DNA of 64,000 bases from Ancylonema sp. (taxonomy: Eukaryota), in the NCBI GenBank assembly GCA_050230475.1, contig JBFLGF010000001.1, positions 1 to 64,000 of the forward strand, read 5' to 3'. Under the pieces are notes generated by a model. It did not search any database. It was not told the DNA's origin and saw nothing but the letters and a program-made list of their open reading frames with translations. How positions within the stretch are numbered: position 1 is the stretch's first letter; each line of letters opens with the position of its first letter. The position numbers and the translations under genes were made by a program. Of the stretch, positions 2,966 through 60,929 are shown piece by piece.

Positions 2966-4188
2966 TCCACCTCCACCTCCACATCCACCTCCACCTCCAC
3001 ATCCACCTCCACCTCCACATCCGCCCCCGCCTCCAAATCCTCCGCCGTTGGATCTGCGAACAAGGGTTCATGCCGACATGCCGATAGGTCAACTCAACGA
3101 CCTATTGAGATTTTTGTTTTTTCTGATTGCCAGTCTGTTGGTCTCACGAGAATTCATGTGATCCGTACAACCAACATCGTCACAACGATCATCAACCTCA
3201 TCATTGTCCTTGTTCGTCATTCCTTTTGAACATTTTTGTCAACGTACTCATAAGTTATACAACTCTCATTAGTTGTCCACAACAGCATGTCTTGTGCGAT
3301 CTATGGTAGGAAAGATAACCTCTCGGGTGCGCACAAACATTAAAGATTGAGAAATATCAGATTCATTCAATCAGACCAACACTGAAAACAAAAGCTTCCC
3401 ACAATGGTGGACTTTGCGAAGATCAATAAGACAAAAATATATTTCGGTTAAGTCTTCACAGTCAGCCCATGGATGTGCACTGTGGATGAATACACCTTGT
3501 TTGTAGAGCGCTAGCAACGCTGACTTGTGAGATTATCGGGTGAGGTCATTTGCTTATGTGGAAAGGTAAGTCTTCTAGTAACTTACCCCATGGCATATCC
3601 AAGGGCCATTCCTGACAGCATATTTGAGTCACCACCACGACCAGCATACGTGCCGCGAGGATTGCCTCCATAATACCCGCCATGATGATAACGGGGGGCG
3701 GGAATCGTTGAGAATGCCCCGATGCTGATGGACAGCTTTATTTCCCCCATGGGCACTCGGCCGAAGCAGCACACTCCCGAAGAGTCCAGGGGGTAGTTGA
3801 GGGAACAGCTTGAATCTAGGAGATCGCTTCGCCTTAACGGAAAGGCCAGGGGGATTTTAGCCCGCCCAAGGTTCTCATTAACGAACTCGTGCTTGGAGTA
3901 TAATTTGACAATCAGGAAAACTTTCCCGAAACACTTAGATTCAGTCAGAAAGAAGTCGTCAATGGTGATGAAGAGGGTCTCGTCCCACGTAACACTAACG
4001 CCCTGATTTTTTGCCACATCAGACTTCTGGCGGCGAGCAAGCAGTCTGCCGCCCGGGCCCAAGATATAGAAAACTGCAAACACATTCTGAAGGTAATCGC
4101 TGCGAGGGCCTATGAAATTAGCAAATTCTTGAGCACTGTGGAGACGAATCTCGACGCGTCGTGTCTGAAATTCAGTGGGCCGGGCCAT
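2960..4188 (-). CDS. C2-domain protein (SRC2-like) with Gly/Cys-rich tail; exons 4188-3587 and 3053-2960
   Basis: ORF 3583-4188 has C2-like strands (VEIRLHSAQ...VTWDETLFI...LIVKLY...LGRAKIPL...GEIKLSI). A GTAAGT donor at 3586 (phase 2) joins a TTCGCAG acceptor at 3054 in frame, giving GSNGGGF(GGGGGC)x4-stop. Confidence 0.75.
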
Positions 4189-4848: not shown

Positions 4849-6172
4849 TATGGGGAGACTACCTCCTAGCTAGGTAGAGAATACCCGTAATATCGAGAAA
4901 ACGTCAGGACTCAAAATTTCGCTGTGCCAAGGCCGTCCAAACCGTGATTTTCGTTATGCGCGGCGTAGGCCCCAGCTGCTGCAGTCCTAAAGCGCTACTG
5001 TCAGCATTTTGCCGCAGATTGCCAGCGCTGGCTTCTTGCTGCTGTCATGCAGCCCTATAGGTGGGATGATGCTTCCGAGCCGTGTACTGCAGTGTGCGGC
5101 CGATTGTAAGCGTAGCTACGATCCCTTGCTGTCTTGACGCCTGCGTATTGTTGCATATGTATATTGCTTTTCGCATACTTGTGTTAAAACATAAGGGTGT
5201 CATGTTGGTTTCTTTCGGTAGCGCGTGTAGTTTTAGCGCGTAGGTTTCAAATCGGACAGCGTTGAAGCGATGGAATACATGTCGGTAAGTGTCTACGCCA
5301 TTCCTTTTGAAGAAGGTGGTGATGTAAAATTCTTCACTGGCCGAAGTCATGTGGTAGCGTGTAACGCTCACATATATAGGATATGATTTTGTGAGGGCAC
5401 GTAAGGTGGAATCCACTTTTTTTTGGCCGTAAATCTCCGAATAGTATTGTCACATGCATAATTATTTATTTTAGTATGTTAATGCATATTTATTTGTTTT
5501 TGCCAATTTTTGTTCGTTGCTGCAGCGCTGAACATACACCTTGGTGGCCTCGCGGTGGATGTACAACCGGAGCCAAAAAAAATCCACGTCTCTAGATGGC
5601 ACCAGCACCAGAGTGTTCCTCGGAGTGTTCAGCAGGAGGTGTGTTCATTTCTCGTTTTTTTTCATACGGCAGTTGATGATAGTTACATATGGTTGATTGA
5701 ATCTCGCCAATGTCCGCGTTCAATTCAAATGCTTGAATATCTACCATCTCCGTGATAATTGGTATGTTGTTTCAATAATTTATGTATCCATGCATGCATA
5801 CATGCTTAGATGCCTGAATGCATACATGCACATGTGATTGTATGCACACACGCAGACATGCATGCATACATACAGACATGCATACATACATACAGATATA
5901 CATACATACATATATACATTCATGCATACTCACATACATAAATATATACATACATGTATACATACATACATACATACAAATATACGTACATGTATACTTA
6001 CATACATACATATATACATATACAGATACGCATACATGCATACATACATACATACATACATACATGCATACATGCATACATACATACATACATACCTACA
6101 CACATACACACATACATGCATACATACATACATACATACATGCATGCATGCATGTATGCATGTATGTATGTA
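4849..6172 (+). mobile_element. Dispersed ~1.3 kb non-coding repeat with (CATA)n-type tail, copy 1
   Basis: Colinear and highly similar to 46797-48146, starting at the same base (TATGGGGAGA). Confidence 0.85.
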
Positions 6173-9100
6173 TATATTCGTACTAACGAATAATATTAAA
6201 GTTCCCGGCATAGGCCTCGGGCCTCGAGTGCCACGCGTTGTAAGCTAGCCAATTTATAGGCGCACTCTCGATAAGCACTTTATCAATAAGTTTCGGAAAG
6301 CGTAAATACGTACACTCGTCCCGGCCGATACTCCCACCGAAAGTCGAACGACTGTCCATCGTGCTTGTCGCCTTGACAACTCAGCTTTAGTACTTAGGAA
6401 GCCATTCGGGTTGTGACCCATCACTACCACAAAAGAATGCGCACCTTCCAAATAGCACCTCCGCTCGCGCATACGGACGGTGGCAAGAAGCTCTTGCTCT
6501 CCCACTCCGTAGCGTTGTTCAGCGCCATTCATTGTTCGGGACTCATACGCAATAGCGTGGTTACCCAGGAGTAGCACTCCGCCTAATGAATGCTTGCTAG
6601 CATCCGTGACCATTTCACATAGAAGTATCGGGTCAACTATTGCCAATGTTGGCGCATGCGTTAAGCAATACGTTAGCCGATCGAACGCCTGCTGACACTG
6701 CAGTGTCCACTCAAAGTGCGTCGATGCCTTAGTCAAATTCGTCATGGGTTTTGGAATCTCCGCACATTCATAAATGAACTTACGGAAGTAATTTGCTAAA
6801 CCCAGAAATGACCGAACATCTTTGTCATTTTTTTGGTGTGGGCCACGCCGGGATCACACTTAATTTGTCCTTGTCGGGCCGAATACCGTCGGGACCGACC
6901 TCATGCCCTAAATTCAGAAGCTTCTCTTGCATGAAGGTACACTTCGCTATACTATCGCAGTATCGACAAAGCGTGTCAAACATGCTGGACACAAACATAA
7001 TTGGTTGACCATACAACGAAGAGGATGGAATTATCTAACCTTTTGCTATGTATTCCGTGATCTTTTTTTTCGCCTCGGTAATCTCTAAAGGACTTAGACG
7101 ATACATTGTCCGAAACACCGGTTTAGCCCCAATGGGATCGTATGATCGGTACCCCAATCGGGTGGCAATCCAACCGGACTGTCATCGGGAAACACATCGA
7201 TGAATTCATCGAGTAAAGTTTGCATAGGCGGAGGGATGCCCGGCATCGACTCCTTCTTTTGCAATTGCCACTCTTTACCATTGCTTACTCTTCTTCAAGA
7301 GTTTTCGAGCGTAGTTAGACGAAGAAAGCTTGTGCTCCTCTCACAAAGCCTTGGAGAGTTGTAGGGATGATAACAAAGGTGCCGTTGGCTTTTAAAGAGA
7401 AAGTTGGCAAGCTTCCAAGGTCATATAACGCAACCCTTTACTAATTCGGCATGATTTTGTACCAAAAATCTATAACGGCATTATGTTGATTCAACCATTC
7501 TTGTCCATGAATGGCGTCCATACCCGGTGCACACAAGCTAAGCACATGGAAAACAACTTTGCTATTATATGCCCCCAATTTCACATGTAGAGTCGCACGA
7601 CCCTTTATGTCCACTTGTTTCCTTCCCCGAACGTCAACCATGACATTGGTACCGGGAGTGTAAGCAATGTTATACAGTGCTCACCAACAAACTATGTTCT
7701 TCACGGCAGTTCGCACGGGTTACCCCGTATGCATGCAGGTGATTGATGTTTTCAAGTTTGTTGATTTGCTGGACTAAATGCAACCGGCCAACTACTGTGG
7801 CTTGCATTCGGTTTCATGCACATGCATTCAAATGATCCCATTATTATTTTCAAATGCTTCATGTAGTCTTCCATCTCCTTGCTAGGAGGCATGCATATAT
7901 ACACATGCGCTGGCATATTGGAAAGGTCGAAGAGCAAGATAGGAGTTCAGGCATTACACAAGTACCCATAGTCAATAAATGATTTATGCTCATCCAAGCA
8001 TGCTATGAGGTGGTCACTCCACCCCCATTCAATCAAATCATTTATTTGACAAAGTACAAATGTTGCCCTACTTAACTCACCCGTGACTCCAAGTCAGGGT
8101 TTCGGAGTCTTGTGCCACCCTAGTGGACTTATCTCCATTATCTTTTCTAATTCATACCCATCCTGGTAGGACACCCTTATCCAATCAACAAGACTATCGT
8201 CAAATAAAGCATTATTTGAAGTCTTTTCAAGTGATTAACTGTCACTCCTAACATAGGCCTCGCGAGGGACCACCCTCGGCCATTACCCCGTACATGGGTA
8301 GCATCTCTTGAACAATCTTATGAATATACTTGCACGTGGCCTAGCATGGCTTTGTACTTATACTTCATGTCATCAAGGGATGCTCAAGACATCTGTAGCA
8401 GTCTTGCTACAGATGTTGCGCCCATTGCGCCCATTGCGCCACTGCAGCCTTCATCCATGCGCCACCTTACGCCTTGGAGCTTGGGCTCAATTCTGCTCCT
8501 CCGGAGCTCTGACTTTGAAAAGCTGCCAAAGTGAGACCACTTTTTAGTTTGCAGTTCTGTAAAGTTCAGAAGACATCTATACAAATTATGTATCACCTAC
8601 ATCAAATTTCAGCGTAAACGGAGAAAATCCGAGAAGGCAGCAGTCTTTCAAAAACAGACTATGAAACAGACGACTGTTTCCTGAACCAGATTCAGCAGTC
8701 AGCGCGTTTGAACATCAGTTACAAACTACTGGTTCATTTTGAGATCAGAAACGTGCGCCAGTTTTAAAATTTTGTTGTCTACACACTCTCAAAAGAACAT
8801 GCATTTTGACCCAGCCAACATGGAGCAATGTGTAGTTATGTGCAGCTGGTCAAATAAGACATCTGGATGAAATTTTTGCCAATATCTTCCAATCCCATAA
8901 TTGGTTTGACTTCAAACTACTACATGCGTTAGAAAACATCTTCCCTGATACGCTGACCGAGTTTGATCTCAAACGGAGCAGTCAATATCTCGCCGCATCC
9001 AATCGCGTCTCCGGACTCGAGGTCGCCAAAATTATGGGCGCGATTCGGAGGCGTAGTAATTCGTATAACTCGGATTTCGGGTCGAAATTGACTGATCATC

Positions 9101-25241: not shown

Positions 25242-32035
<6,794 letters not shown>

Positions 32036-36702: not shown

Positions 36703-38345
36703 TATCATCGTTTCGTATGTTTACGACACCGCCGCATCTGAAATGGTCAATCATCAGAATGGGTGGTTGCCAATGTTAAATTAATTCAACACGCACAGCC
36801 CGGTGAGAAGTTGTTACAGACACATCCATGATTACATTATTGCTTATCGATTATTATTTTTTGCCTTTTAGTTTGCATCAGTTACTCTGCCCTTCAATGA
36901 TATTTGTCGTGAAAAAATTCCTCGTCCACGTCCTGGTCAATATTTTTGGTGATTTCCCAGAATAGTGACTGCCACGGGCAGCTCGTGGTCTGGATTTTGT
37001 GCACAAAGTCATGTTATAAAAGGAGAGTGTAAATCAAGCCCTCACGTGCATGTGGAGTTGATGTCTTGAATAGGACTTCTACCTCCATCGTATAGATGAG
37101 TGTTGAAAGTCATTGTACGTGGCGATTATTAGGTTTTCGGTCTAGTCGGCGTGATTTATTTCTCTTGAGTTGTTCGGCGATCTCAAGTAGTGGTAGACAT
37201 GCTTTATTTCAAATCAGTCGCTTAATTTTAACAATTGGCAACAGTAGACCATCTTTCCATCAGTATAATATAATTTTAAAAGCCCAATTATGGAAGTAAA
37301 TACAACATGATTCTAGAAACACGTAAAAAGTAGAGTTGGTGTCAACGATAAAATATAATACATAATTTTCATCTCCGAACATGGCCCACAAAAATCGAAT
37401 GCTTCGTAACTCTTTGTATAAATCCCATTAATCCTCCATGGAAATCAATTATGAAGCACTACCAATCACGTCGACATGCTACATCGACATATCGATATCT
37501 TCACCATTCGTGTCATTCTCAACGGTGTTGATTACAAAACCACTCTTATTGCACAACTATGACAAAACTAAGTTACACCCACAAAGTCCCGATGGATCAG
37601 TCAAATAATTTCGTCACCATCACTATTGATAAAATAGTCCAAAATAAAAAAATCAACACACGCCCTTCAAATGCGTCGATACAAAAATAATGTAACAAAC
37701 ACCGATTCTTAAACCGATCAAAGGTGTATATGCAACCTACGAACAAAAGAGGTTGTCAAGATTTTATCCGTTCCCCAATGTTTTCACCTACTCCCTTAAT
37801 TGACTTCCCCCACGCGTATACATCGCAAGTGGCTGATGAGCTGGGGGACCGGTTGGTGACTCGGGCGGGAAGTTGGCCATCCACTCCCCAGGGGCTAAGC
37901 CACTTGTCGCCTTCGTTGTGATTCGTACGACGTATTTTTTAACGTTCTGTCTTTATCTCGTTTAAATAGATATTACGAAACCAGAATCATAACGAATGGG
38001 CGTTCCGTAACCATCCATCTGTTTTTGTCGTACGCATCAGTGATTAGGACGCAAGTTCAGGTCGTTCGATGATTTTTCTATATGTGCTGTTCACGACTGA
38101 AACCCAAATAAGCCTTCGACAGAAATCGTGCAGTATTCGACAGCGCCGATAATGTTTCTGCACTAACGGATTGCTACCCTCATCGTCGTTTTCGAATAAT
38201 GTCTCGGGCGGCTGGGACGAATCCCGTGTGGTTACTTTCTGCCTCTTCTAGTATAGACGAAACCCTGAACCAAACATCATGTAGCAGATTATATTGCATG
38301 ATCTGATCATCACTTGTCGTTTTGGTTCAGTGTTTCTAACAAGAA

Positions 38346-44248
<5,903 letters not shown>

Positions 44249-44692
44249 TTTGCCAATTCGTGTGTGAAATAGCAAGAGTGTATCACGTACAATTTAGGAC
44301 AATCTCTCAATGCTTCATGGTTGTACACGGTTTGGCCACTTGGAAATCGACCCCTCTTCGAAAGTGTACTTTACAACGCAGTGGCGAAGATTCTATCGGG
44401 CGATTTCGGACCCTTCTTCCCTTCATCTTTTGGGAAAATCATCACATTTTCCGATTGAAGTTGGAGGTATAGCAACTGAGTCTATAAAAAAAATAAGAGC
44501 ACCGAACAACAAAACACCAACTAAAGTGCGTATTCCCAAGCAAAAAAGAATTGGAGTCTACCTTCCGTCTAGAGTCAAGTAACCTCTATAAATAAAGCAT
44601 CAAAAATAAATACACTTTACATGTGTATACATACAACAAAGATATTGACTCATTCAGAACTTGAATGACGCACCTATGATATCTCGACCACT

Positions 44693-46635
44693 TCAGTGGC
44701 GTAAGCCAAAGATGCACCCCCATGCATCCAAGGCAAACTTTGCAATGGGTTTTAGTTTGGGGTCAATGTTGTGCGCATCGATTACATGCTTGCCCGGAGG
44801 CACCACCAAAACCTGCGTATCAAACACAACAAAAAACAAACACTAAGGATCTGAACATTTGACTCTTCAGCTTTTACTGCTTTTTCAACCCCATACAATT
44901 TTAAGAAGGATACGTGTCTCTCACATGAGAAGACACGTCTTGCCTGTGAAAACAAATCCTTTTGTACTCGGATTACAATGCGGCTCATCCACAACCCCCC
45001 CCCACCCGCACTCTTTCCACACACCCCAAAACTCCTTATCCTCTTCTTGGTATCCCATTTCTCATTCCAAAGAAAACCAGAAAACAATCGTCGACTCTTC
45101 AACACCCCCCCCCCTCCCCCCCCCCCCCCCCCATCCCCACCTCCAGCTCCCTCCTCCCCCACTCTAGTGCGTCCCTATGACTCATGTGGAAGAGATCCAC
45201 GTGTAACCCGCCTCGAATGGCGGACCCATGGTCTTGCACCACTCCCAACCCGTACCCGGGCACGTGCAGCTGGGTCTGGAAGGGGAACCAGGTGGTATCC
45301 GCTGCCACGGTGCCAACCGCGGGTGGGGCCTTCCAGGGCAGCAGGAGGCGGATGGGGATGCGGTGGGGTCGCACTGCCAGCTGTTGCGTGGAGAGGAGGG
45401 GGGTGCGGGCCTGCTGGGGGAGGACACCTGTTGACGTCACGCCCGTATAGGGCATGCCTACCTGGCACACCACCGGAGACAGGGGACACGGGTACGGGTA
45501 CGGATATGGTTGCAAACACCGTACAATTACGGCTGCTATGGTTATGGGTCCGAACACCCGAATAGGGGCAGCCAGGCGTACTTGGGGGTGAGTATTTGGT
45601 GTAATTTGTACAATCGTTTGCAGAATGGATTGGGTGAAAGTTGGCGAATTTGCAAATGGACGATTTGGCGATTGGGGTAGAAGGCAAGTGTGAGCCTGTA
45701 CAGGGTTGAGATTCAGGTCTTCTTCTATAGGCCAACAAAGGTGCAAAAATTTGAATCACTCGTTTCCAGGTTGTTCGGGAAAGAGGGAATGTAAGTTATT
45801 CATTTCTACTTCTGCTAGTAGAGCTGGCCTAGGGGTGCGGTGGCGGTGATTACCTGGCGCGTGTGAGTCCAGTACCTGGACAGAAAGCGAAGGGAGGACA
45901 AAAAGGATACAACCACAGTCGTCTGCAGAAAGTGCATAGACGTTATGCATTAATAAATGTGAAACTGGCTGGTGCTCACACGTGGCAATGCATGACGTCA
46001 GACAGACACGAGACTCTCTAGTTTCCGAAATTGGTTCCCGTGGCTACCGGGGAACAGGGTCCACATACCGACAGAACAGTCCGGGTTTGAGGTCCTCCCG
46101 CACTTCCCGAGGCTTCACGCAAATGTTTTTAGGGCGCAGGGCTGTCAAGTCAAAGTTTTGCAGTCGCTTTATTGTTTCGGGCCAAGATTGGCGGAGCAAG
46201 AGCGGGTGGCGGGTACCCGCAGGAGAATGAATATCCCCCAGCGAAAGGTACTTGGACCGCCCGAATATCGTCAAACCCCATTCGTAGCCGCAGCAGTGAC
46301 CACACCTAGGGAAGTCATAGAAGGGGGATATTTGGGGGTCCTGGGCGTAGACGAGGCGCAATTTGATCTATAACTATTCACTAATGGGAATAAAGTGTAG
46401 GATGGGACGGGAGAAGACATGAATTCCAGCTATTATTTTTCCGTGACCATGGCCATCATCATAAAATATATGGTTGATAGAACATGCAGTTGTGAGAAAC
46501 AAGAATATCAAATGGTGACTGGAGACGCGGGATTGGCGTCGAGACTCACCCACAGTATGCCGTACACATAATTTTGAGTTTTCGAGGATTTCCAGCTTTC
46601 ACTACAGAGGTGTGCTTTTTCGGGGCGGAAGCCAT
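44693..46635 (-). CDS. 3D (Asp-Asp-Asp) domain protein, MltA/YuiC/YocH-like double-psi beta-barrel, 261 aa; exons 46635-46550, 46305-46069, 45875-45854, 45461-45141, 44812-44693
   Basis: Spliced product: MASAPKK...MCTAYCG|CGHCCGYEWG...LFCR|YWTHTRQ|VGMPYTGVTSTG...GTVAADTTWFPFQTQLHVPGYGLGVVQDHGSAIRGGLHVDLFHMSHRDALEWGRRELE|VLVVPPG...LRH*. Four GT-AG introns with compatible phases, 786 nt in total, no internal stops. Confidence 0.85.
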
Positions 46636-46796: not shown

Positions 46797-48146
46797 TATG
46801 GGGAGATTACCTCCTAGCTAGGTAAAGAATACCCGTAATATCGAGAAAACGCCAGGACTCAAAATTTCGCTGTACACAGGGGCCAAGGCCGTCCAAACCG
46901 TGATTTTCGTTATGCGCGGCGTAGGCCCCAGCTGCTGCAGTCCTAAAGCGCTACTGTCAGCATTTTGCCGCAGATTGCCAGCGCTGGCTTCTTGCTGCTG
47001 TCATGCAGCCCTATAGGTGGGATGATGCTTCCGAGCCGTGTACTGCAGTGTGCGGCCGATTGTAAGCGTAGCTACGATCCCTTGCTGTCTTGACGCCTGC
47101 GTATTGTTGCATATGTATATTGCTTTTCGCATACTTGTGTTAAAACATAAGGGTGTCATGTTGGTTTCTTTCGGTAGCGCGTAGGTTTCAAATCGGACAG
47201 CGTTGAAGCGATGGAATACATGTCGGTAAGTGTCTACGCCATTCCTTTTAAAGAAGGTGGTGATATAAAGCATTCTACACTGGCCGCAGTCATGTGGTAG
47301 CGTGTAGCGCTCACATATATAGGATATAATTTTGTGAGGGCATATAAGGTGGAACCCACTTTTTTTTGGCCGTGAACCTCCGAATAGTAATGTCAGCTGC
47401 ATAATTATGTATTTTAGTCTGTTAATGCATATTTATTTGTTTTTGCCAATTTTTGTTCGTTGCTGCAGCTCTGAACATACACCTTGGTGCCTCGCGGTGA
47501 TGTACAACCGGAGCCCAAAAAAATCCACGTCTCTAGATGGCACCAGCACCATCACCAGCACCACCTCGGAGTGTTCAGGAGGAGGTCATTTCTCGTTTTT
47601 TTTTCATACGGCAGTTGATGATAGTTACATCTGGTTGATTGAATCTCGTCAGTGTCCGCGTTCAATCCAAATGCTTGAATATCTACCGTCTCCGTGATAA
47701 TTGGTATGTTGTTTCAATAATTTATGTATCCATGCATGCATACATGCATATATGCTTAGATGCCTGATGCATACATGCACATGTGTTTGTATGCACACAA
47801 GCATACATGCATGCATCCATACAGACATGCATACATACATACAGATATACATACATACATATATACATTCATGCATTACTTACATACATAAATATATACA
47901 TACATACATACATACATTACATACATACAGATATACGTACATGTATACTTTACATACATACATATATACATATACAGATACGCATACATGCATACATACA
48001 TACATACATACATACATGCATACATGCATACATACATACATACATACCTACACACATACACACATACATGCATACATACATACATACATACATGCATACA
48101 TACATACATTCATACATGCATACATACATACATACATACATGCATA
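46797..48146 (+). mobile_element. Dispersed ~1.3 kb repeat with (CATA)n-type tail, copy 2
   Basis: Aligns by eye to 4849-6172 with small indels. Confidence 0.85.
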
Positions 48147-48917
48147 GGTTGAACCCGGACCCAATTGTACTAATCCTCGAGGATGGTAATCTTTGGTTTT
48201 TAGGACATTTGTCACTCAATAGGTTGCCTCGCATCGACCCGGAATGAAGATGTCACAAGGATACGCTGCCAACTTTAGTCCATATTTACGAAGCAGTAAA
48301 AGAGGGAACTACTGCGTGGCTCCAATTCAACGAGTGGTGTGAGTTGAATCTGCAAGGATAAGGCGGGAATTTTGGGTTTGTAAATGATTGTATAATTTGT
48401 AGAGAGTTGGGGCAATTTGCAAGACTCGCCATGTATTTTATGTTAGAGGAATTACATTAAGTTCGTCACAAATAGTTGTTTCCCGATGTTATTGTCGTAA
48501 AGTTGAATTGCCGGATTCGTATCTAGTGTTTTATCTAGTTGACACACATGACAACTTGTATTCTTTATCGATGGGGCATAGAAAACTAAGCTCCTACTTC
48601 TTTCACTCCATTCCGTGAAGTTTCCAAAATGTGCGTTGCGATATGTAAAAATCTTTACAACACAACGAACAATGGGAACCAATCCCACATCATACACATC
48701 CTAACATCCATCCATCTTCCTTACACATGTTTTTTTGTTCATATGAACAACCAACCAACCCAACTCCCCATTGCATTTCTAAGTCTCTTAGCACAATCAT
48801 CCCACTTGCAACAACACACCAAGCCGACATCCACCTATCGCTACATGACCGGATAGACCCACGGGCGATTCGACTCAATCTATCGAGTTGTGGGATACGT
48901 ATGCATTGGTATATCAT

Positions 48918-49710
48918 CAGGGATGCACCGGGACGGCAAAAATGTATACAAACGCCGTTTTGCAAACGGAATACGTGCGTACGGCAAAAGTGTTGCAAAC
49001 GTTTGCATTTTGCAAACGTTTTGCAAACGTTTGCATTCGCAAACGTCCGCAAATTTATTCCTAGATAGGCCCCTTCCCGGCTAAGCTTTAAACCCAATAT
49101 ATCCGGCGGACTCTCTATTTTGTCGTACCGCCAGTTCGTCCCCGTCAGTTTGTTGTATCCCCGTTTATGTCATCATTACATTTCCCCCGTGTTTTTCCTG
49201 TCCCCGTCGTTTTGTCCTGTAGCACGTCCCGATTCTGTCGTGTCTTCCGTTCCACCATCGTATCTTGGCCCGTAGCCCGTCTCCCGTTCGATCATAGATT
49301 ATGTTTGTCGTGTGTGAGACAGAATCTTTCCGGGTGAGTGTCGTTCACGACCCTGTCCCATCCCCCGATGCCGTCCGAATCCCCTGGAATCCTCTGTTGT
49401 GAGTAGATTCTGTACACATTCACGACCTCTTTTTTTAATCAATCTACCTGTTTTTTTAATCCGGAGTCATTAGTACGGAAATGTACGGACATGTACGGAC
49501 ATGTAAGGACTGTACGGACACAAACGTTTGCAAGCGCAAACGTTTGCATCCGTATAGTCCGTACCCATTTGCCGCATTTCACGGCCGTATTCCGGACGTT
49601 TGCGGGCAAATCCGTACGCCGTTTGCATTTGCCAGGGCCGGCAGATTGCCCTCGGCCCCGTCCGGAAAACGTGCTCTACAGAAAACGGGCCCCGGCCCGG
49701 TGCATCACTG
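48918..49710. mobile_element. hAT MITE (793 bp)
   Basis: TIRs CAGGGATGCACCGGG / CCCGGTGCATCACTG, a perfect 8-bp TSD TATATCAT (48910-48917, 49711-49718), and subterminal GCAAACGTTT and GTACGG repeats. Confidence 0.92.
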
Positions 49711-50742: not shown

Positions 50743-53700
50743 GTTAGATGACTTGGAGACGAGGAAAGGATTCGTGGCATGGCATTCTGCTGCTGCTCTC
50801 CTCCTTACTGTCGATTCCTTCCATACTGCTGCCTTCCGTTACGTTCTCCACCGAAGTGCTGCCGCCCTCCTTGATGTCGTGTCTGTCCGCCTGACTGCTG
50901 GCTATCGGGCCGCAACTGTTAGGAGTGGAATAGAATGGAACTCCTAGCAATCTATGAGCAATCTGGGTTGCAAGTGCACACACAAGATAATGGCGAAAAT
51001 GAGTCGATAGGTTGGAGGGAAATGAGCCGATGGTCAAATGGTCGGGTTGATAGGGTATGGACACAAGGTGCAAGTACATGAGTTGATAGGAATGCTCTAT
51101 AGGCATTCCTATCGGCTAGCGGCCCTAGCCGACTCTAGGAATCATGTGGGATAAATAAGTCAAGGGCGGCTGAGTACACAACAGAATGTAGCTAAAGGCA
51201 CAACTGCCATGACTAAGGACACACCAGAATACTCCCTAGGGGCCATGCGGCCGCTAGGGACACAACTCCCGCTCTATAGGGACAGAACTCGCTATAGAGG
51301 AAACTGAGCTAGTAGCTCTCTAGCGCTAAGTGTGGAGACCTCGCTAGGGAACCCTAGTGACTGTAGCGAGGGTCCTTAACAATACCCCCCCCTCAAGGCG
51401 CGAACGCGATGAGGGAGGCGGTGCAGGCCGAGCGGGAAACGTGACATGGAAATCTGCGACCGCGTCAGCAGCATTGTCCATGTTGTCGGCAGGTTCCCAA
51501 GAACGCTCCGATTCATCGTACCCGACCCAGTCGACGAGGTAAAAGAGCCGGCCCCGCACGAACTTGGAATCCAGAACTGTGGCCACCTCATGTTGTGGCG
51601 CGCCGTCACCACGACCGGAGGTGGAGGCGCCACGACACGACCCGGGAATGTGTTGGTCGGTAGCTCCAGCGAGGAGGCTGACGTGGGAAGACGGGAATGG
51701 ATTTGAGGACAGAGGACGGCAGCTCCAAGCGATACGACGAGGTGCCAATCTGGCCAAGAACCGGAAAAGGACCCAGACGACGGACATCGAGTTTTGAGGA
51801 AGGACGAGTGGATCCGACGTGGCGCCGGGACAGCCAAACTTTCTGACCCGGCGAAAATATCGGAGCAGATCTCCGCTTCCGATTGGCCGAAATTTCCATC
51901 GCCCGCTGGGATTTGCGAAGCGCTGACTGGAGGAAACTTGGGTGTCGTGGATCGTTTGACATAGTCGTCGGCTGCGGGGTTGGGGGAATTTGGGGAGGGT
52001 GGGAGCAGCGACATCTGCGGGTGGATGCCGTAGTTGGCAAAGAACGGGGAGAGGGTGGTGGCGGAGTGCTTGGAGTTGTTGTAAGCGAACTCCGCCAGCG
52101 GCAAAAGTTGGGCCCAATCGGATTGCTGGTAATCGGTGTAGATCCGCAGATATTGTTCGAGAACCGAATTCAGGCGCTCCGTCTGCCCGTCCGTCTGCGG
52201 GTGAAAAGCAGAGGAGCGGTTGGCCCGTACACCGAGCAGCTCCAACAGCCGGCGCCAAAAGTGGCTGGTGAAGATGGGATCGCGGTCGCTGATGAAGCTG
52301 CTGGGCAACCCATGCAGGCGCACGACTTGCTGCACGAACAGCGCTGCGACCTCAGGAGCCGCCATGGCCTTGGTGGTAGGAATGAAGTGTGCCTGCTTCG
52401 TCAACCGGTCGACGACCACTAGAATGGCGTCGTAGTAGTCGCTAGGGGGGAGGTCCGTAATCCAGTCTAGGGAGACGCTGGTCCATGGCTGGGTAGTAGG
52501 GATAGGTAGAGGGGACAGCAAGCCAGGCGCATGGCGCACCGGCTTGTTCCGGGCGCGTTGTCGCACGTGCGCACGTAGTCTTCCACTGCCTTTGAGAGGC
52601 CAGGCCAGTGAAAATACTGCGCTACCAACGCGTGCGTGCGGGCAGTGCCGAAGTGGCCTGCCATAGGTGCGTCGTGGTACTGCGTTAGGATAAGAGAGGA
52701 TAAATGGTAGCAGCTGTACGAGGGATAGCGAGGCGGCCGAGATGGTTATAGAAGGCCGTCTCGTAAGGTGTAGGAGATTTGGGACTCGCCTGTAGTGCGA
52801 CTCGGGTTAGATTCCCGAGCGGGTCCGGGTTGCAGGGATGTAGCTATAGCGTGGAGGGTAGGGTCGGCTAGTTGACTAGATCGTATGTCCAGGAGGATAG
52901 GGTCGTTAGGTGCCAGCATGATAGCTGCCGCACGCACCGGGGGAACTGGGAGAAGAGCTGGTGGGGGGAGAATCGGGTGGGGGGATGTAGCTGGCAGCAG
53001 ATAGTCAGGTATGCGGGATAGGGCGTCTGGCTTGCCATTGGTGGACCCCTTCCTGTAGACGATAGTGAAGTCGTAGGCTGCGAGCGTCTCGGCCCGCCTT
53101 GCGTGTTTGCGGGATGTAGTTCTGGCTGCCTGGAAATACTCCAGGTTTTTATGGTCGGTGTAGACCATGATAGGATGGGCTGCTCCTTCGAGATAGACCC
53201 GCCACTGACGAAAGGCAGCCACTATGGCGAGCAGCTCTTTGTCGTAGATAGGATAGTTAAGTCTGCTGCAATGAACTTGCGGGAGTAGTATGCTACGGGG
53301 TGGAGCTCGCCGCGGGGATCTGGCTGCGATAAAACGCGAGGCCGAAGTCGGAGGCGTCGGCTTCGAGGGTGAGTGGCTGCAGGGGTTGGACGTGCTGCAA
53401 GACCGGAGCGGAAGTGAAGGCGAGCTTTAGGGAGTGGAAAGCTGCGTCGGCCTCAATTGTCGAGCCAAAGGTTGCCCCCTTTCCCCCTTTCGTGTCAATG
53501 AGGCACGCCACCGTAGAATAGCCTTTAACAAAATGCCTGTAGAAGTTAGCGAACCCAGGGAAGGACTGGACCTCCTTGACTGACTGGGGCTTTGGCCAGT
53601 CAAGGAGAGATGCCACTTTCTGGGGGTCCATACCCACGCCGACTGGGGATACCTGGTAGCCGAGAAAGGCAATAGTGTCAGTATGAAACTGACACTTCTC

Positions 53701-55920
53701 GATCTTAGCGTAGAGGTGGTTCTCGCGTAGGATTGCCAGGATAGCACGGACGTGGGGGACATGTTCGGCGTAGAGGACTGTATGATCAGGATCAGAGAAT
53801 CTGATAGGAGCTACCCGGATCTGGTTGCGCACTAGCCGTAGAAATGTAGCCAGACTTGCAGAATCTCCTGAATATTATTGTAAATCAGGAAGGACCATTT
53901 CTGAGTGAGTTGGCTGGTAGGCTGGTGGGGAAACAGGGATAGGCTGAGGGAAAGAAGTGGGTGGGGCTGAGATAGGAGATGGGGTGCTGAGGTGCGCCTC
54001 CACCACCTTTTGTTTTTCATGAAGCTCATTGGATTGTGCGAATAAGGTCGTGATTCTTTCATCTAATTTTGCCTGCCGTTCCATATTCTCGCTCATTTGC
54101 AAACTCATGGCTTTCAGAGTCTCCACAATCTGTTGCAACTCCATGAGGAAAACTGGAAACTCAGAAAAAAAAATGAGGTTTTCGCCCTTAAAAGAAGTTA
54201 AACCTCAATTGTATTCCTATCAAAGTGTTAGGAGTGGAATAAAATGGAACTCCTAGCAATCTATGTTGCAAGTGCACAAGATAATGGCGAAAATGAGTTG
54301 ATAGGATGGAGGGAAATGAGCCGATGGTCAAATGGTCGGGTTGATATGGTAGGGGCACAAGGTGCAAGTACATGAGTTGATAGGAATGCTCTATCGGCAT
54401 TCCTATCGGCTAGATATCGGAAAGTCGGCCCTAGCCGACTCTAGGAATCATGTGGGATAAATAAGTCAAGGGCGGCCGAGTACACAACAGAATGTAGCTA
54501 AAGGCACAACTGCTCAGACTAAGGACACACCAGAATACTCCCTAGGGGCCAGGCGGCCGCTAGGGACACAACTCCCCCCGCTCTATAGGGACAGAACTCG
54601 CCGCTATAGAGGAAACTGAGCTAGTAGCGCTCTAGCGCTAAGTGTGGAGACCTCGCTAGGGAACCCTAGTGACTGTAGCGAGGGTCCTAACAGCAGCGGT
54701 CGTCGGTAGTCTCGCATGAGGTGACCTGGCGCATTGCAGCTGTGGCACTTCTTCTGAGGTCTAGCTCCTCGAGCTTGGCCACCTCCGTCTCCGTTCGGGC
54801 AGCTAGTTCGATAGTGGCCGAACTGCTGACAACCGTGGCGACGGACGTTGCTGAAGTCTGGTCCTTGCTAGGGCGTGCCGCTAGATCCGGCTCCGCCAGA
54901 TCCGCCATAGTGGGCTTGTGGGCCGTCGAGAGGCTCGCCACGCTTCCGCGCGCTGACGATGAGCTTGGTGTCTTTTTGCTGTAGAGCCGAGGTGATGTGG
55001 GGGATTGTGTAGAGGGTCGGAGAAGACTCTGCCCAGCTCTGAACGACCTCCACCATGGAGTCGTATCGGGAGCTGAGGGAGTTTATCAGGTTCGTCGCCT
55101 GGTCTGCTTCGCTGACTGGCTTCCCCAGGTGCGCAAGCTCTCCATGGATGACCTGCAGGCGTTTGACAAACTCTTGTAAGTCTTCTGCCTCCGCCATTAC
55201 CGTAGCACTCAGTTTAGCCAGGGCATTAGCTACTTCAATAGCGCCCTGGACTTCGTAAAATGATGCAAGGTTGTTTCACATTTCAAAAGCGTTATTTACA
55301 ATCCCTGACATGGACCTGCTCTGACGGACCTAAGAACCGAACAATGTAGGCCTGCGCCTTAAGTCCTGAGCATCCTAAGCATCAACAAGTACATTCCTAG
55401 CATCGACATTTTGTTGGTGTGTGTTGGCAGCTGCTATTCTAGCTGCAGCATCACCAATCAATGACTCGACTACTGCCTGAGTCAGCGGCTCGATAACAGC
55501 TGGGCGAGGTATTCTCGTCCTCCCTTTGAAGTCGATGACATATCGATGAAGCTCTTTCTCGATCAGGCCGAACCTGACCTTAAAGGCCCATCCCTGATAT
55601 GCTGCTCCGATGAACTGGGGAATAATTGCCTTATCCGCCATCTGCACCAGAGTTAATACACAAATTCCAACACAAAATATGCAGCAGCTAACAGATCTAG
55701 CAAAACTTTGGCGGCAATTTGGAACACGAAGCTCTCAGCTCACAATGCGAAAATAGAAGCAGAACGTAATTCAAGAATTACGAGCTATAGCAATTCCGGA
55801 TCTAATTGCCCTAAATTAGGCACAATTTACCTTGATTTCCAGAGCAACTTTGCCTGGTGAAAACGTGGAAATCTATAGGATCCGACTCGGATGTCCTAGA
55901 CAATATGTGGGCCCATAACC
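50743..55920 (-). mobile_element. Truncated Ty1/Copia element (gag only), interrupted by the chromovirus
   Basis: PBS minus GGTTATGGGCCCA at 55908-55920. gag N-terminus YQGWAFKVRFGLIEKEL, UBN2-like DLQEFVKRLQVIHGELAHLG...LINSLSSRYD, and knuckle CHSCNAPGH. The gag tail resumes left of 50917. Confidence 0.8.
50917..54692 (-). mobile_element. Ty3/Gypsy chromovirus with both LTRs (54226-54692, 50917-51381); internally deleted
   Basis: Highly similar TG...CA LTRs, [32 protein letters not shown]-terminus, RNase H (LEADASD; WRVYLEG; VYTDHKNL), integrase (GHFG; PWTSVSLDWITDLP; ISDRD; HPQTDGQTER) and chromodomain (YLVDWVGYDESERSWEP). Frameshifts are present. Confidence 0.95.
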
Positions 55921-59020: not shown

Positions 59021-59609
59021 TGATGCACATTGCACATTGCACATTGCACATTGCGAGAGCAATCTGCCCGGCAGATTGCTCTCGGCCCCGAATTGATTTG
59101 CAGATTTTGCCGTCCTTGGCAAATGCAAACTTCGTACGGATTTGCTCGCAAACGTCCGGAATACGTACGTGAAATGTGGCAAACGTGTACGGGTTGTACG
59201 GATACAAACGTTTGCGATTGCAAACGTTTGAAGTACGTCCGTGAAACAACGTGTACAGATTGTACGGATGCAAACGTTTGCGATCGCAAACGTTTGCGTG
59301 CAGTTTTTTTTATAGCTTTTTGGAAGTTTCGCATAATATTGGTTACGTTTTTATCATGAACGTCATGAACCAATGATGACGAGTCTTACAAAATTTCACA
59401 CTACAGATACCGGAAGTGTAGCACATGTAAAGTAAAGCAACACGTTGCGGACGTTTGCAAAACGTTTGAAAATTCGAACTTTTGCAAAACGTTTGCAAAT
59501 GCAAACGTTTTGCAAACGCATTTGCAACAAACGCCGTACGCACGTATTCCGTACGTACGCGTTTGCAATACGGGGTTTGCAAGCATTGTTTCCGTCCCGG
59601 TGCATCACT
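59021..59609. mobile_element. Second, decayed member of the 48918-49710 hAT MITE family, in inverted orientation
   Basis: Right end CCGTCCCGGTGCATCACT with the same GCAAACGTTT/GTACGG repeats. The left TIR is reduced to TGATGCAC followed by (TGCACAT)n. Confidence 0.75.
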
Positions 59610-60929
59610 TATCAAAACTCGAAATTTGGAGGGGGGGGGGGACCGCTACGTTTGAACATCACATAGTTTAGACTCATCACAATGTGGCGTCACAAATGCG
59701 GGAACAATTTAAATTAGAACATGAATCCTATTGTTCATAACCCGAAATTACTCAAAAACATATAAGGTTAGAGTCTTCGAAATCCACGTGCAAGAGTTCA
59801 ACGAGATATGATTTCTTGCGACGAAAACATGTCGGGTCCTCTACCACATCTTCGGTAATAGTCCACTCTACCGCCCTTGTGGCATGTACATACAGTGAAC
59901 ACTCGATGCAATGGCATGTGTACCAACGGTGTCAATTCAATGTCCCTCCATCGAATACCGGGGCTCTCATTATATATTGTATAAAGACATTTGCTAGGGA
60001 GACATTGGTGTCTGTCGCTATATGAGTTGAAAGTGAAATGTAGGTAATTTGAGGTATTGGACAGGGTTCACAATTGGATTTCATATCCTTTTGTGTAAAT
60101 CGATGTGGTGTTAACCCAAGGCTAAAGCAACAACCAATGTATTTTTAAGATTAGAGCACATAATATAGTTGCTCTTTTGGTACTACGGCACACCCGAACA
60201 CGAAGAGAATGAACAAAGGGTTGAATTTAAGCTTGATAAAAAATACCCCTATTTCATTTTTTGACTCAACCTCGGCTTTTCGTGCCCCAATTTTTGTCAC
60301 AACAATAAGAACGATCAAGACCTTCAAGAAGACCAACCAACGTCAGCGACTGTTCTAGATGAGCACGTTCATAAATATATGGTATATAATTTTGGATGTG
60401 TGAACCCACACCAAAGCCCTGACGTGCTGTTTGGAGTCGGCCGCCCGGATTGATGTTTTCAACACTTTGTCACAATTGTTCTCGAATGTTTCTCAAAATG
60501 GTGCATGTGGTAATGCTCGTGGTGGTGTAGCGATGATGTCAATTGGGTTGGTATCGATGATGTTCGTAGGTGGTAGAAGAGTCTCTGGTGAACTTAGTGG
60601 TCCGGCTGCTCTCACTTGAAGTAGTATTGCAGATTGAGTCTCTGCTGAGATATCAATATTATATCTATCACACGTCTTAGCGGTCTGGTGAAATTCACTA
60701 CTTAACGCTGAGGGCAAGCTAACAGATGGTTTACAGCACACAAGTCTGAGAAAATACTGTAAAGCAAACAAGATAGTATGGTGCAGACTATCAAGGTTAA
60801 CAGCCGTAAGAGATACTTTCGGTGCGAAAGCAAAGTATCGACGGCGAGTCGATAAAAAATGCTGGCTATTCAGTAAGAGCGTCAGCAAATAGGTGTAAAC
60901 AACAGAGGCTGGCTCGGAGCGAGCGACAA

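Follow-up and report, generated by a model that had tools for sequence, protein, structure and literature searches.

The question raised by this locus is whether a spliced gene of bacterial type, located on the reverse strand of a contig of Ancylonema sp., is a genuine nuclear gene, from which source it was acquired and upon which glycan its product may act. In the current work "the window" designates the whole stretch of DNA that was analyzed (64,000 nt, positions 1 to 64,000 of contig JBFLGF010000001.1), and residue numbers refer to the product of this gene, named the window protein. The initial annotation of the window had proposed a gene of five exons, including a micro-exon of 22 nt, encoding a 261-residue protein with a peptidoglycan-cleaving 3D domain, and had regarded it as a domesticated enzyme acquired by horizontal or endosymbiotic transfer.

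The spliced coding sequence of 786 nt specifies 261 amino acids followed by a stop codon, and all introns begin with GT and end with AG (Table 1). Nearby open-frame combinations of GT/GC donors and AG acceptors were scored against three algal homologues, and the chosen junctions were the top-scoring ones among 3, 5, 5 and 6 open-frame alternatives for introns 1 to 4, respectively. A 268-residue model, in which the donor of intron 2 is placed at 46047, was dropped since the 261-residue form aligns better with the homologues. Skipping of the micro-exon causes the frame to stop at 108 residues, and the Trp110 residue encoded by this exon is invariant in all 35 aligned homologues. The transcript-derived algal homologues P0143 (61% identity over 243 residues by BLASTP, with a single gap that is located away from the junctions), P0001 (57%) and P0002 of Netrium digitus (52%) align without gaps across all four junctions. 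Exon 2 matches P0180 and P0183 at 90% and 86% identity, respectively, with divergence directly past the exon end, these two proteins being intron read-through translations from close relatives, the former of which then contains the micro-exon peptide. Finally, the spliced contig L081, when mapped onto the genomic locus L103, reveals five introns, three of which match introns 1, 2 and 4 of the window gene in position and phase, while the other two are absent from the window; each exon of L103 encodes a segment with 96-100% identity to Sphagnum protein P0237, i.e. L103 is a Sphagnum-type locus.

Table 1. Features of the window gene and codons of the three conserved aspartates.
Feature	Position	Strand	Description
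Exon 1	46550..46635	-	86 nt; start codon, 24-residue basic leader and first barrel strand with T25-A-Y27-C28
Intron 1	46306..46549	-	244 nt, phase 2; position and phase as in L103
Exon 2	46069..46305	-	237 nt; remainder of the CxCxxCC motif, then EWG and a lineage-specific insert, as far as the RYW junction
Intron 2	45876..46068	-	193 nt, phase 2, donor GTATGT; common to L103
Exon 3	45854..45875	-	22-nt micro-exon, encodes W110
Intron 3	45462..45853	-	392 nt, phase 0; without counterpart in L103
Exon 4	45141..45461	-	321 nt; YxGxT motif, PxRLLLPW insert, Pfam 3D core
Asp170 codon	45297..45299	-	corresponds to YuiC D129 / MltA D261
Asp192 codon	45231..45233	-	corresponds to YuiC D151 / MltA D297
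Asp204 codon	45195..45197	-	corresponds to catalytic YuiC D162 / MltA D308
Intron 4	44813..45140	-	328 nt, phase 0; common to L103
Exon 5	44693..44812	-	120 nt; last barrel strand, streptophyte-type C-terminal tail, stop codon

Judged from these sequence comparisons, the locus is a real spliced nuclear gene, its splicing in the window organism resting on conservation. The exon structure of the initial annotation, including the micro-exon and the length of the product, thus agrees with the junction scores, the homologue alignments and the introns of L103, and every motif that it had named is present in the window protein. Its argument against contamination, drawn from introns and eukaryotic neighbours, holds as well: four GT-AG introns, three of them common to the moss-type gene, interrupt an intact frame, the neighbouring genes and elements (actin, GH79, NSD-type PHD fingers and LTR elements) are eukaryotic and the protein is nested among algal proteins, so that readings of the locus as a bacterial contaminant, as fortuitous frames or as a pseudogene appear already refuted and retain a negligible probability.

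Exon 4 alone matches the Pfam 3D profile (PF06725) with 44.7 bits (cut-off 23.8; E=1.6e-11), a profile that also matches each of the 35 aligned homologues scanned, and its best sequence match is YuiC (E=3e-10), which belongs to the SpsC group and comes from Bacillus subtilis (PDB 4WLI/4WJT/4WLK). The aspartate equivalences of Table 1 were counted along the alignment of the window protein with YuiC and follow the numbering in the available text of PMC4499186, in which YuiC D151 is described to bind the N-acetyl group at the -2 site; in addition, S195/A196 of the window protein correspond to YuiC S154/A155. None of the three aspartates varies among the 35 near-full-length eukaryote-type homologues examined, a hand-chosen set that includes near-duplicates and from which fragments and mis-spliced isoforms devoid of part of the core (P0256, P0181, P0272) were left out. 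T25 and Y27, the putative counterparts of YuiC T91 and Y93, are kept in 31 and 30 of these 35 proteins, respectively, and position 177, being Gln in the window protein, is occupied by Gly in 34 of them.

An AlphaFold model of homologue P0143 (pLDDT 87), which is 61% identical to the window protein, places YuiC (Foldseek E=4e-4; Z 10.9, rmsd 4.2, 99 aligned residues) and MltA (Z 10.5, rmsd 1.7, 85 aligned residues) above loosenin (Z 8.2) and the expansins (Z of 7.9 or less), and on this model a double-psi beta-barrel fold is predicted. The proposed assignment to the 3D domain is therefore upheld by a Pfam score above the cut-off, by retention of the three aspartates and by YuiC and MltA as best structural matches of the P0143 model, the structural comparison being one that the initial annotation had suggested; the Asp that it had considered catalytic, in HVDLF, is Asp204 and aligns with MltA D308. 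Like the window protein, YuiC is a minimal 3D/double-psi barrel with three aspartates and the Ser-Ala pair, whereas the CxCxxCC motif, two inserts and a C-terminal helix distinguish the window protein from it, as does the signal peptide which YuiC-group proteins possess according to the available part of PMC4499186. Exon 4, the only part scanned, scores 51.4 bits against the SpsC equivalog NF058633 (cut-off 280). With MltA the plant family shares the catalytic barrel and Asp, as judged from the P0143 model, yet it differs from MltA in carrying no lipoprotein signal, and the Pfam MltA-specific domain was found neither in the window exons nor in the 35 family members. Considering that the cysteine motif and the inserts differ between subgroups, the barrel might have been retained in a non-catalytic sugar-binding or structural membrane protein, a role rendered improbable by the catalytic Asp in all 35 homologues and by an orienting Thr position conserved in 31. 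Moss/fern-type transcripts (L085, P0181, P0392-P0394) were also observed in which the exon bearing the second and third Asp is skipped or truncated, and which, from their sequence, would represent inactive isoforms.

The family is not confined to the window organism. Homologues with an organism name were obtained from streptophyte algae (Netrium, Spirogloea with three copies, Klebsormidium), from land plants (Marchantia, Riccia, Physcomitrium, Sphagnum, Diphasiastrum, Adiantum, Colocasia) and from other green algae (two from Pyramimonas, Tetraselmis chui, Prasinoderma coloniale, Micromonas commoda); such names were available for 30 of the several hundred proteins returned, the remaining eukaryote labels resting on sequence type. 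No member from Arabidopsis, Chlamydomonas, Ostreococcus, red algae or glaucophytes was present among the named matches listed. The ESM Atlas clusters, taken as leads only, carry mostly Streptophyta (82 members) and Chlorophyta (55) labels, followed by Thermodesulfobacteriota and Verrucomicrobiota.

A quick tree of 91 rows places 32 of 33 eukaryote rows in one clade (SH-aLRT 98), and a careful tree of 57 rows, from which 34 long-branched or redundant rows had been dropped, unites all 24 eukaryote rows (99/94, the bootstrap not being settled); neither tree includes a cyanobacterial protein. The window protein belongs to the same clade as the automatically annotated plant proteins Mp1g05360 (Marchantia), XP_024399183 (Physcomitrium), GAQ85878 (Klebsormidium) and XP_002505849 (Micromonas). 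Together with Netrium and two others it forms one group (100/95), a placement in the gene tree that suggests a zygnematophyte, probably allied to desmids, as the host. This group joins Klebsormidium (97/85), apart from Spirogloea and the land plants (100/95), and, compared to other plant members, is distinguished by a longer first insert and by His in QDHG and HVD; the split may go back to an old pair of paralogues or else be an artefact of long branches. Seven streptophyte proteins are 56-74% identical to that of Sphagnum, and the window protein is 43% identical to that of Marchantia. The family is thus ancient, shared across green plants and not unique to this genome. The idea of an acquired enzyme stands insofar as a bacterial-type gene has become a spliced nuclear gene; it fails as an acquisition special to this genome or to streptophytes, since one clade spans prasinophytes to ferns and includes one angiosperm.

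That angiosperm protein, P0257 of the taro Colocasia (MQL80846), is the only one seen and bears a Ser/Pro/Ala-rich N-terminal extension; it nests among the land-plant rows but is devoid of the second insert and the tail, and may be a partial model or degenerate. Two further members deserve mention. The Pyramimonas member P0418/P0262 carries a C-terminal LysM-like domain (E=1e-4; P0418 was identified by sequence) and, by eye, an EF-hand-like N-terminus, its cysteine motif being reduced as in the Micromonas subgroup. An intronless member with a streptophyte-type tail is encoded in DNA of 75% GC (L087, and L088 at 2989-3627), adjacent to a gene which has no Pfam match and presumably resembles plant RHL1; this setting suggests a green alga as its source.

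The closest bacterial relatives found are Desulfobacterota-type 3D lipoproteins (P0003-P0007, L001-L080), which have the cysteine motif and both inserts in common with the plant family, sharing the T[AG]YCxCxxC, W..G, YxGxT, PxRxxxPW and ALEWG segments, and are 45-54% identical to exon 4. A lipobox-like motif, a shorter first insert and the absence of a tail set them apart from the window protein. Of 148 genome loci found, the 80 listed comprise 56 from Thermodesulfobacteriota, 17 titled Deltaproteobacteria and 7 others, and all six organism-named proteins among the best 120 matches are from Desulfobacterota, the searches having been seeded with Desulfobacterota-like sequences. The initial annotation had suggested a likeness of the CxCxxCC and PxRLLLPW segments to non-cyanobacterial bacterial homologues, and both, in the forms CxCxxC and PxRxxxPW, are indeed shared by these proteins, as retrieved by searches seeded in this manner. 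The subfamily is patchy even here, with a full-length match in 6 of 151 sampled Desulfobacterota genomes, among them the genome of the seed.

Endosymbiotic transfer from the cyanobacterial ancestor of the plastid, rather than from another bacterium, would suit a green-plant-wide range, and is favoured as well by the patchiness of the bacterial subfamily, which points to movement between lineages, and by the 57-row tree, which does not resolve the bacterial sister of the plant clade. Such an origin is nevertheless very improbable: none of the 80 loci listed out of 148 is cyanobacterial in these Desulfobacterota-seeded searches, for which cyanobacterial genomes lay outside the direct search, the six named proteins are all from Desulfobacterota, and the listed matches include no named red algal or glaucophyte member. 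That the relatives are Desulfobacterota-like is evident from their sequences, while Desulfobacterota as the donor would go beyond the data; the donor is left unnamed because of the seeding of the searches, their scope with respect to cyanobacterial genomes and the sister relationship mentioned above. A precedent for a deltaproteobacterial gene in the green-plant ancestor is stated in the available text of PMC7455551, namely quinolinate synthase. Among the viral contigs and plasmids searched, no mobile vector for the plant/Desulfobacterota subfamily was seen: the 4 viral loci match nothing beyond the core barrel, and the 5 plasmid records, all from Bacillota, each cover less than 80% of the query. 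The gene neighbours of the Desulfobacterota-type loci are varied, the top real partners occurring in 15-17 of 80, and no common peptidoglycan operon was seen. In 16-17 of the 80 loci (L015, L037, L038, L040, L072 and others) the gene is located between mutL-like and trmFO-like genes, named by eye, and in 8 of the 80 a PBP1A-like gene, also recognized by eye, is present further upstream on the opposite strand.

Where the plant proteins act depends in part on their termini. The window protein possesses 24 basic or polar residues ahead of T25, without a hydrophobic N-terminal stretch, and an in-frame stop precedes its start codon with no Met in between; likewise, an upstream in-frame stop without an intervening Met was found in all five spliced contigs L081-L085, two of which are near-identical, and land-plant members begin 10 residues before the T-x-Y-C motif. 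Judged by this length and the upstream stops, no transit or signal peptide is present in the window protein, even if the gene may have a further upstream exon; longer predicted N-termini occur as exceptions in taro P0257, P0241, P0270, P0418 and P0378. The lack of room for a transit or signal peptide weighs against both a simple plastid and a simple secreted antibacterial reading, plastid peptidoglycan pathway enzymes having predicted transit peptides according to the available part of PMC4815162.

A lipobox-like motif precedes the barrel in 59 of 77 bacterial members (with a loose pattern and no control), and the plant proteins are without a bacterial lipoprotein signal. Most prasinophyte-type members carry hydrophobic inserts, with a 19-residue hydropathy of 1.75-2.3 in six of nine measured, and that of M. 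commoda is modelled as helices 78-106, 110-121 and 124-142. In streptophyte members, as modelled for P0143, a C-terminal helix is present instead, the tail encoded by exon 5 being predicted as an amphipathic helix (234-251 in P0143). From these models we infer that a hydrophobic helical hairpin in prasinophytes, or an amphipathic tail in streptophytes, may replace the lipid anchor; for the tail, the hydrophobic moment is a weak criterion, as bacterial C-ends also lie at the 81st-92nd percentile. All 25 eukaryote-type proteins measured have a net charge of +10 to +25.

The best reading of these data, to which we assign a probability of roughly 45%, is that the window protein is a membrane-associated lytic transglycosylase acting on plastid peptidoglycan; its gene was likely acquired once, from a non-cyanobacterial bacterium and early in green-plant history. 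By the chemistry of YuiC and MltA, Asp204 would protonate the glycosidic oxygen and the C6 hydroxyl would close the 1,6-anhydro end, while Asp192 would hold the N-acetyl group at the -2 site. The protein would then have to reach the intermembrane space of the envelope without a cleavable transit peptide, and, while plastids grow and divide, would trim or terminate the strands synthesized by plastid PBP, these two being the weakest steps of the scheme.

A plastid substrate is favoured because, among polymers of N-acetyl sugars, plastid peptidoglycan is the one known to be shared by most of the named holders, the full toolkit being reported in Physcomitrium, Sphagnum, Klebsormidium, Marchantia and Prasinoderma, and MurE, MraY, MurG and PBP (4 of 10 pathway genes) in M. 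commoda. Chloroplast division in a desmid is stopped by peptidoglycan antibiotics (PMC3398972, in its available text), and the high conservation of the family (56-74% identity to Sphagnum) would suit a housekeeping function better than immunity. The non-cyanobacterial donor is no argument against a plastid role, as a source other than cyanobacteria is given for the majority of plastid peptidoglycan enzymes (PMC8227023) and for moss MurE (PMC9434261), to judge from the available parts of both sources. Against the reading counts Gln177, which replaces a near-invariant Gly, and so does M. commoda, which is reported to be without MurA-D, MurF and Ddl (6 of 10): an intact family copy (P0421, XP_002505849) is retained there despite the six missing genes. 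For Tetraselmis, also a holder, no statement on its peptidoglycan genes was found in the literature listed.

A known plastid peptidoglycan hydrolase is DipM which, like the window protein, is nuclear-encoded, being reported from charophytes, a moss and a lycophyte, and which, unlike the 3D family, combines LysM and LytM domains and is of cyanobacterial origin; moss DipM1, a point in favour of the plastid reading, is located at the chloroplast surface even though no targeting peptide is predicted, its N-terminus, in contrast to that of the 3D family, being long enough for processing (available text of PMC4015805). LytM enzymes cut peptide cross-links and not glycan.

The catalytic residues leave the substrate unfixed, since YuiC also cuts plain GlcNAc oligomers, penta-GlcNAc included (available text of PMC4499186). 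This activity, the precedent among double-psi barrel proteins (expansins, loosenins and GH45, whose folds turn up in the structure search), large lineage-specific inserts between barrel strands and a peptidoglycan gene content that varies among holders could all be accommodated by a shift to a host glycan, be it GlcNAc oligomers, a lipid-linked glycan or a wall polymer. We consider such a shift unlikely, given that every top match, in structure as in sequence, is a peptidoglycan lytic transglycosylase, that the N-acetyl-binding Asp is invariant and that no signal peptide is available for reaching the wall.

Peptidoglycan of other provenance is the substrate in a further alternative, in which a cytosol-facing, membrane-bound lytic transglycosylase would clear peptidoglycan of invading or ingested bacteria or of damaged plastids. 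The missing targeting peptide, the positive charge of all 25 proteins measured and retention of the gene by M. commoda without most precursor genes are in line with this, as is the LysM-like fusion in one Pyramimonas, which is equally counted for the plastid-peptidoglycan reading. Defence enzymes usually diversify, whereas this family is highly conserved and displays no large expansion in the named genomes listed (Spirogloea having three copies), and no signal peptide is present that would lead to a food vacuole or out of the cell; clearance is accordingly given a low probability.

Returning to the plastid-peptidoglycan reading, its widest form would hold that plastid peptidoglycan is cut by a green-plant-wide transglycosylase, which was obtained from a bacterium resembling Desulfobacterota when chlorophytes and streptophytes had not yet diverged, and which needs no transit peptide to arrive at the envelope, the hairpin or amphipathic tail replacing the lipid anchor. 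Taken as a whole this is a tentative and somewhat doubtful proposal; if true, retention of the gene by Micromonas commoda and taro would point to a glycan layer, poor in peptide, that persists in spite of a disrupted classical pathway.

The domain and its chemistry are already known, and the plant proteins are automatically labelled '3D domain-containing' by NCBI and UniRef. No study of plant 3D-domain proteins was found in the literature, where subscription papers and supplements may mention the gene: family gene identifiers, PF06725 and IPR010611 returned bacterial subjects only, and the term '3D domain' is absent from PMC4815162, PMC12681378, PMC8227023, PMC7455551, PMC3493653 and PMC13519894, as far as their available text extends, and from four of the five supplements of PMC11135702. 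According to PMC10784329, in its available part, it is still open how plastids remodel or cut peptidoglycan and if lineages with a partial pathway keep a glycan layer; here the family offers a conserved candidate in plastid-wall turnover with a defined catalytic residue in the knockout-ready Marchantia and Physcomitrium. If the plastid reading is true, the family would be a further instance of bacteria other than cyanobacteria contributing genes at the base of green plants, and one of a protein targeted to the envelope although it has no transit peptide; should the substrate be another, the family would still be an ancient bacterial-derived plant glycan enzyme for which no study was found.

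The surroundings of the gene in the window include several further features. A 1.36-kb dispersed repeat, ending in a simple-sequence tract, is present in two copies (46797-48135 and 4849-6183; 92% identical), the former starting 162 bp upstream of the start codon of the 3D gene and thereby crowding or supplying its promoter. Tail to tail with the 3D gene and approximately 440 bp apart lies a multi-exon GH79 (heparanase-like) gene (38340-44249, forward strand; last exon assigned by eye), an arrangement treated as incidental. Beyond the gene itself, nothing in the flanks of eight moss and algal loci clearly corresponded to the window, among the matches listed. A gene on the forward strand (27200-32000), which we take to resemble plant EDM2, encodes NSD-type PHD fingers and contains a Gln/His-rich 30-nt repeat (31627-31776). 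An LTR element (50981-54688) with terminal repeats of approximately 400 bp (96-99% identical) and remnants of integrase and RNase H-like sequences is short for a full element, and is followed by a copia-type gag remnant (54871-55275). Finally, an inverted pair of 123-nt repeats (49521-49643 and 59108-59230; 88% identical, 9.5 kb apart), with more matching pieces near 48916-49046 and 59462-59612, is possibly the remnant of a DNA transposon.
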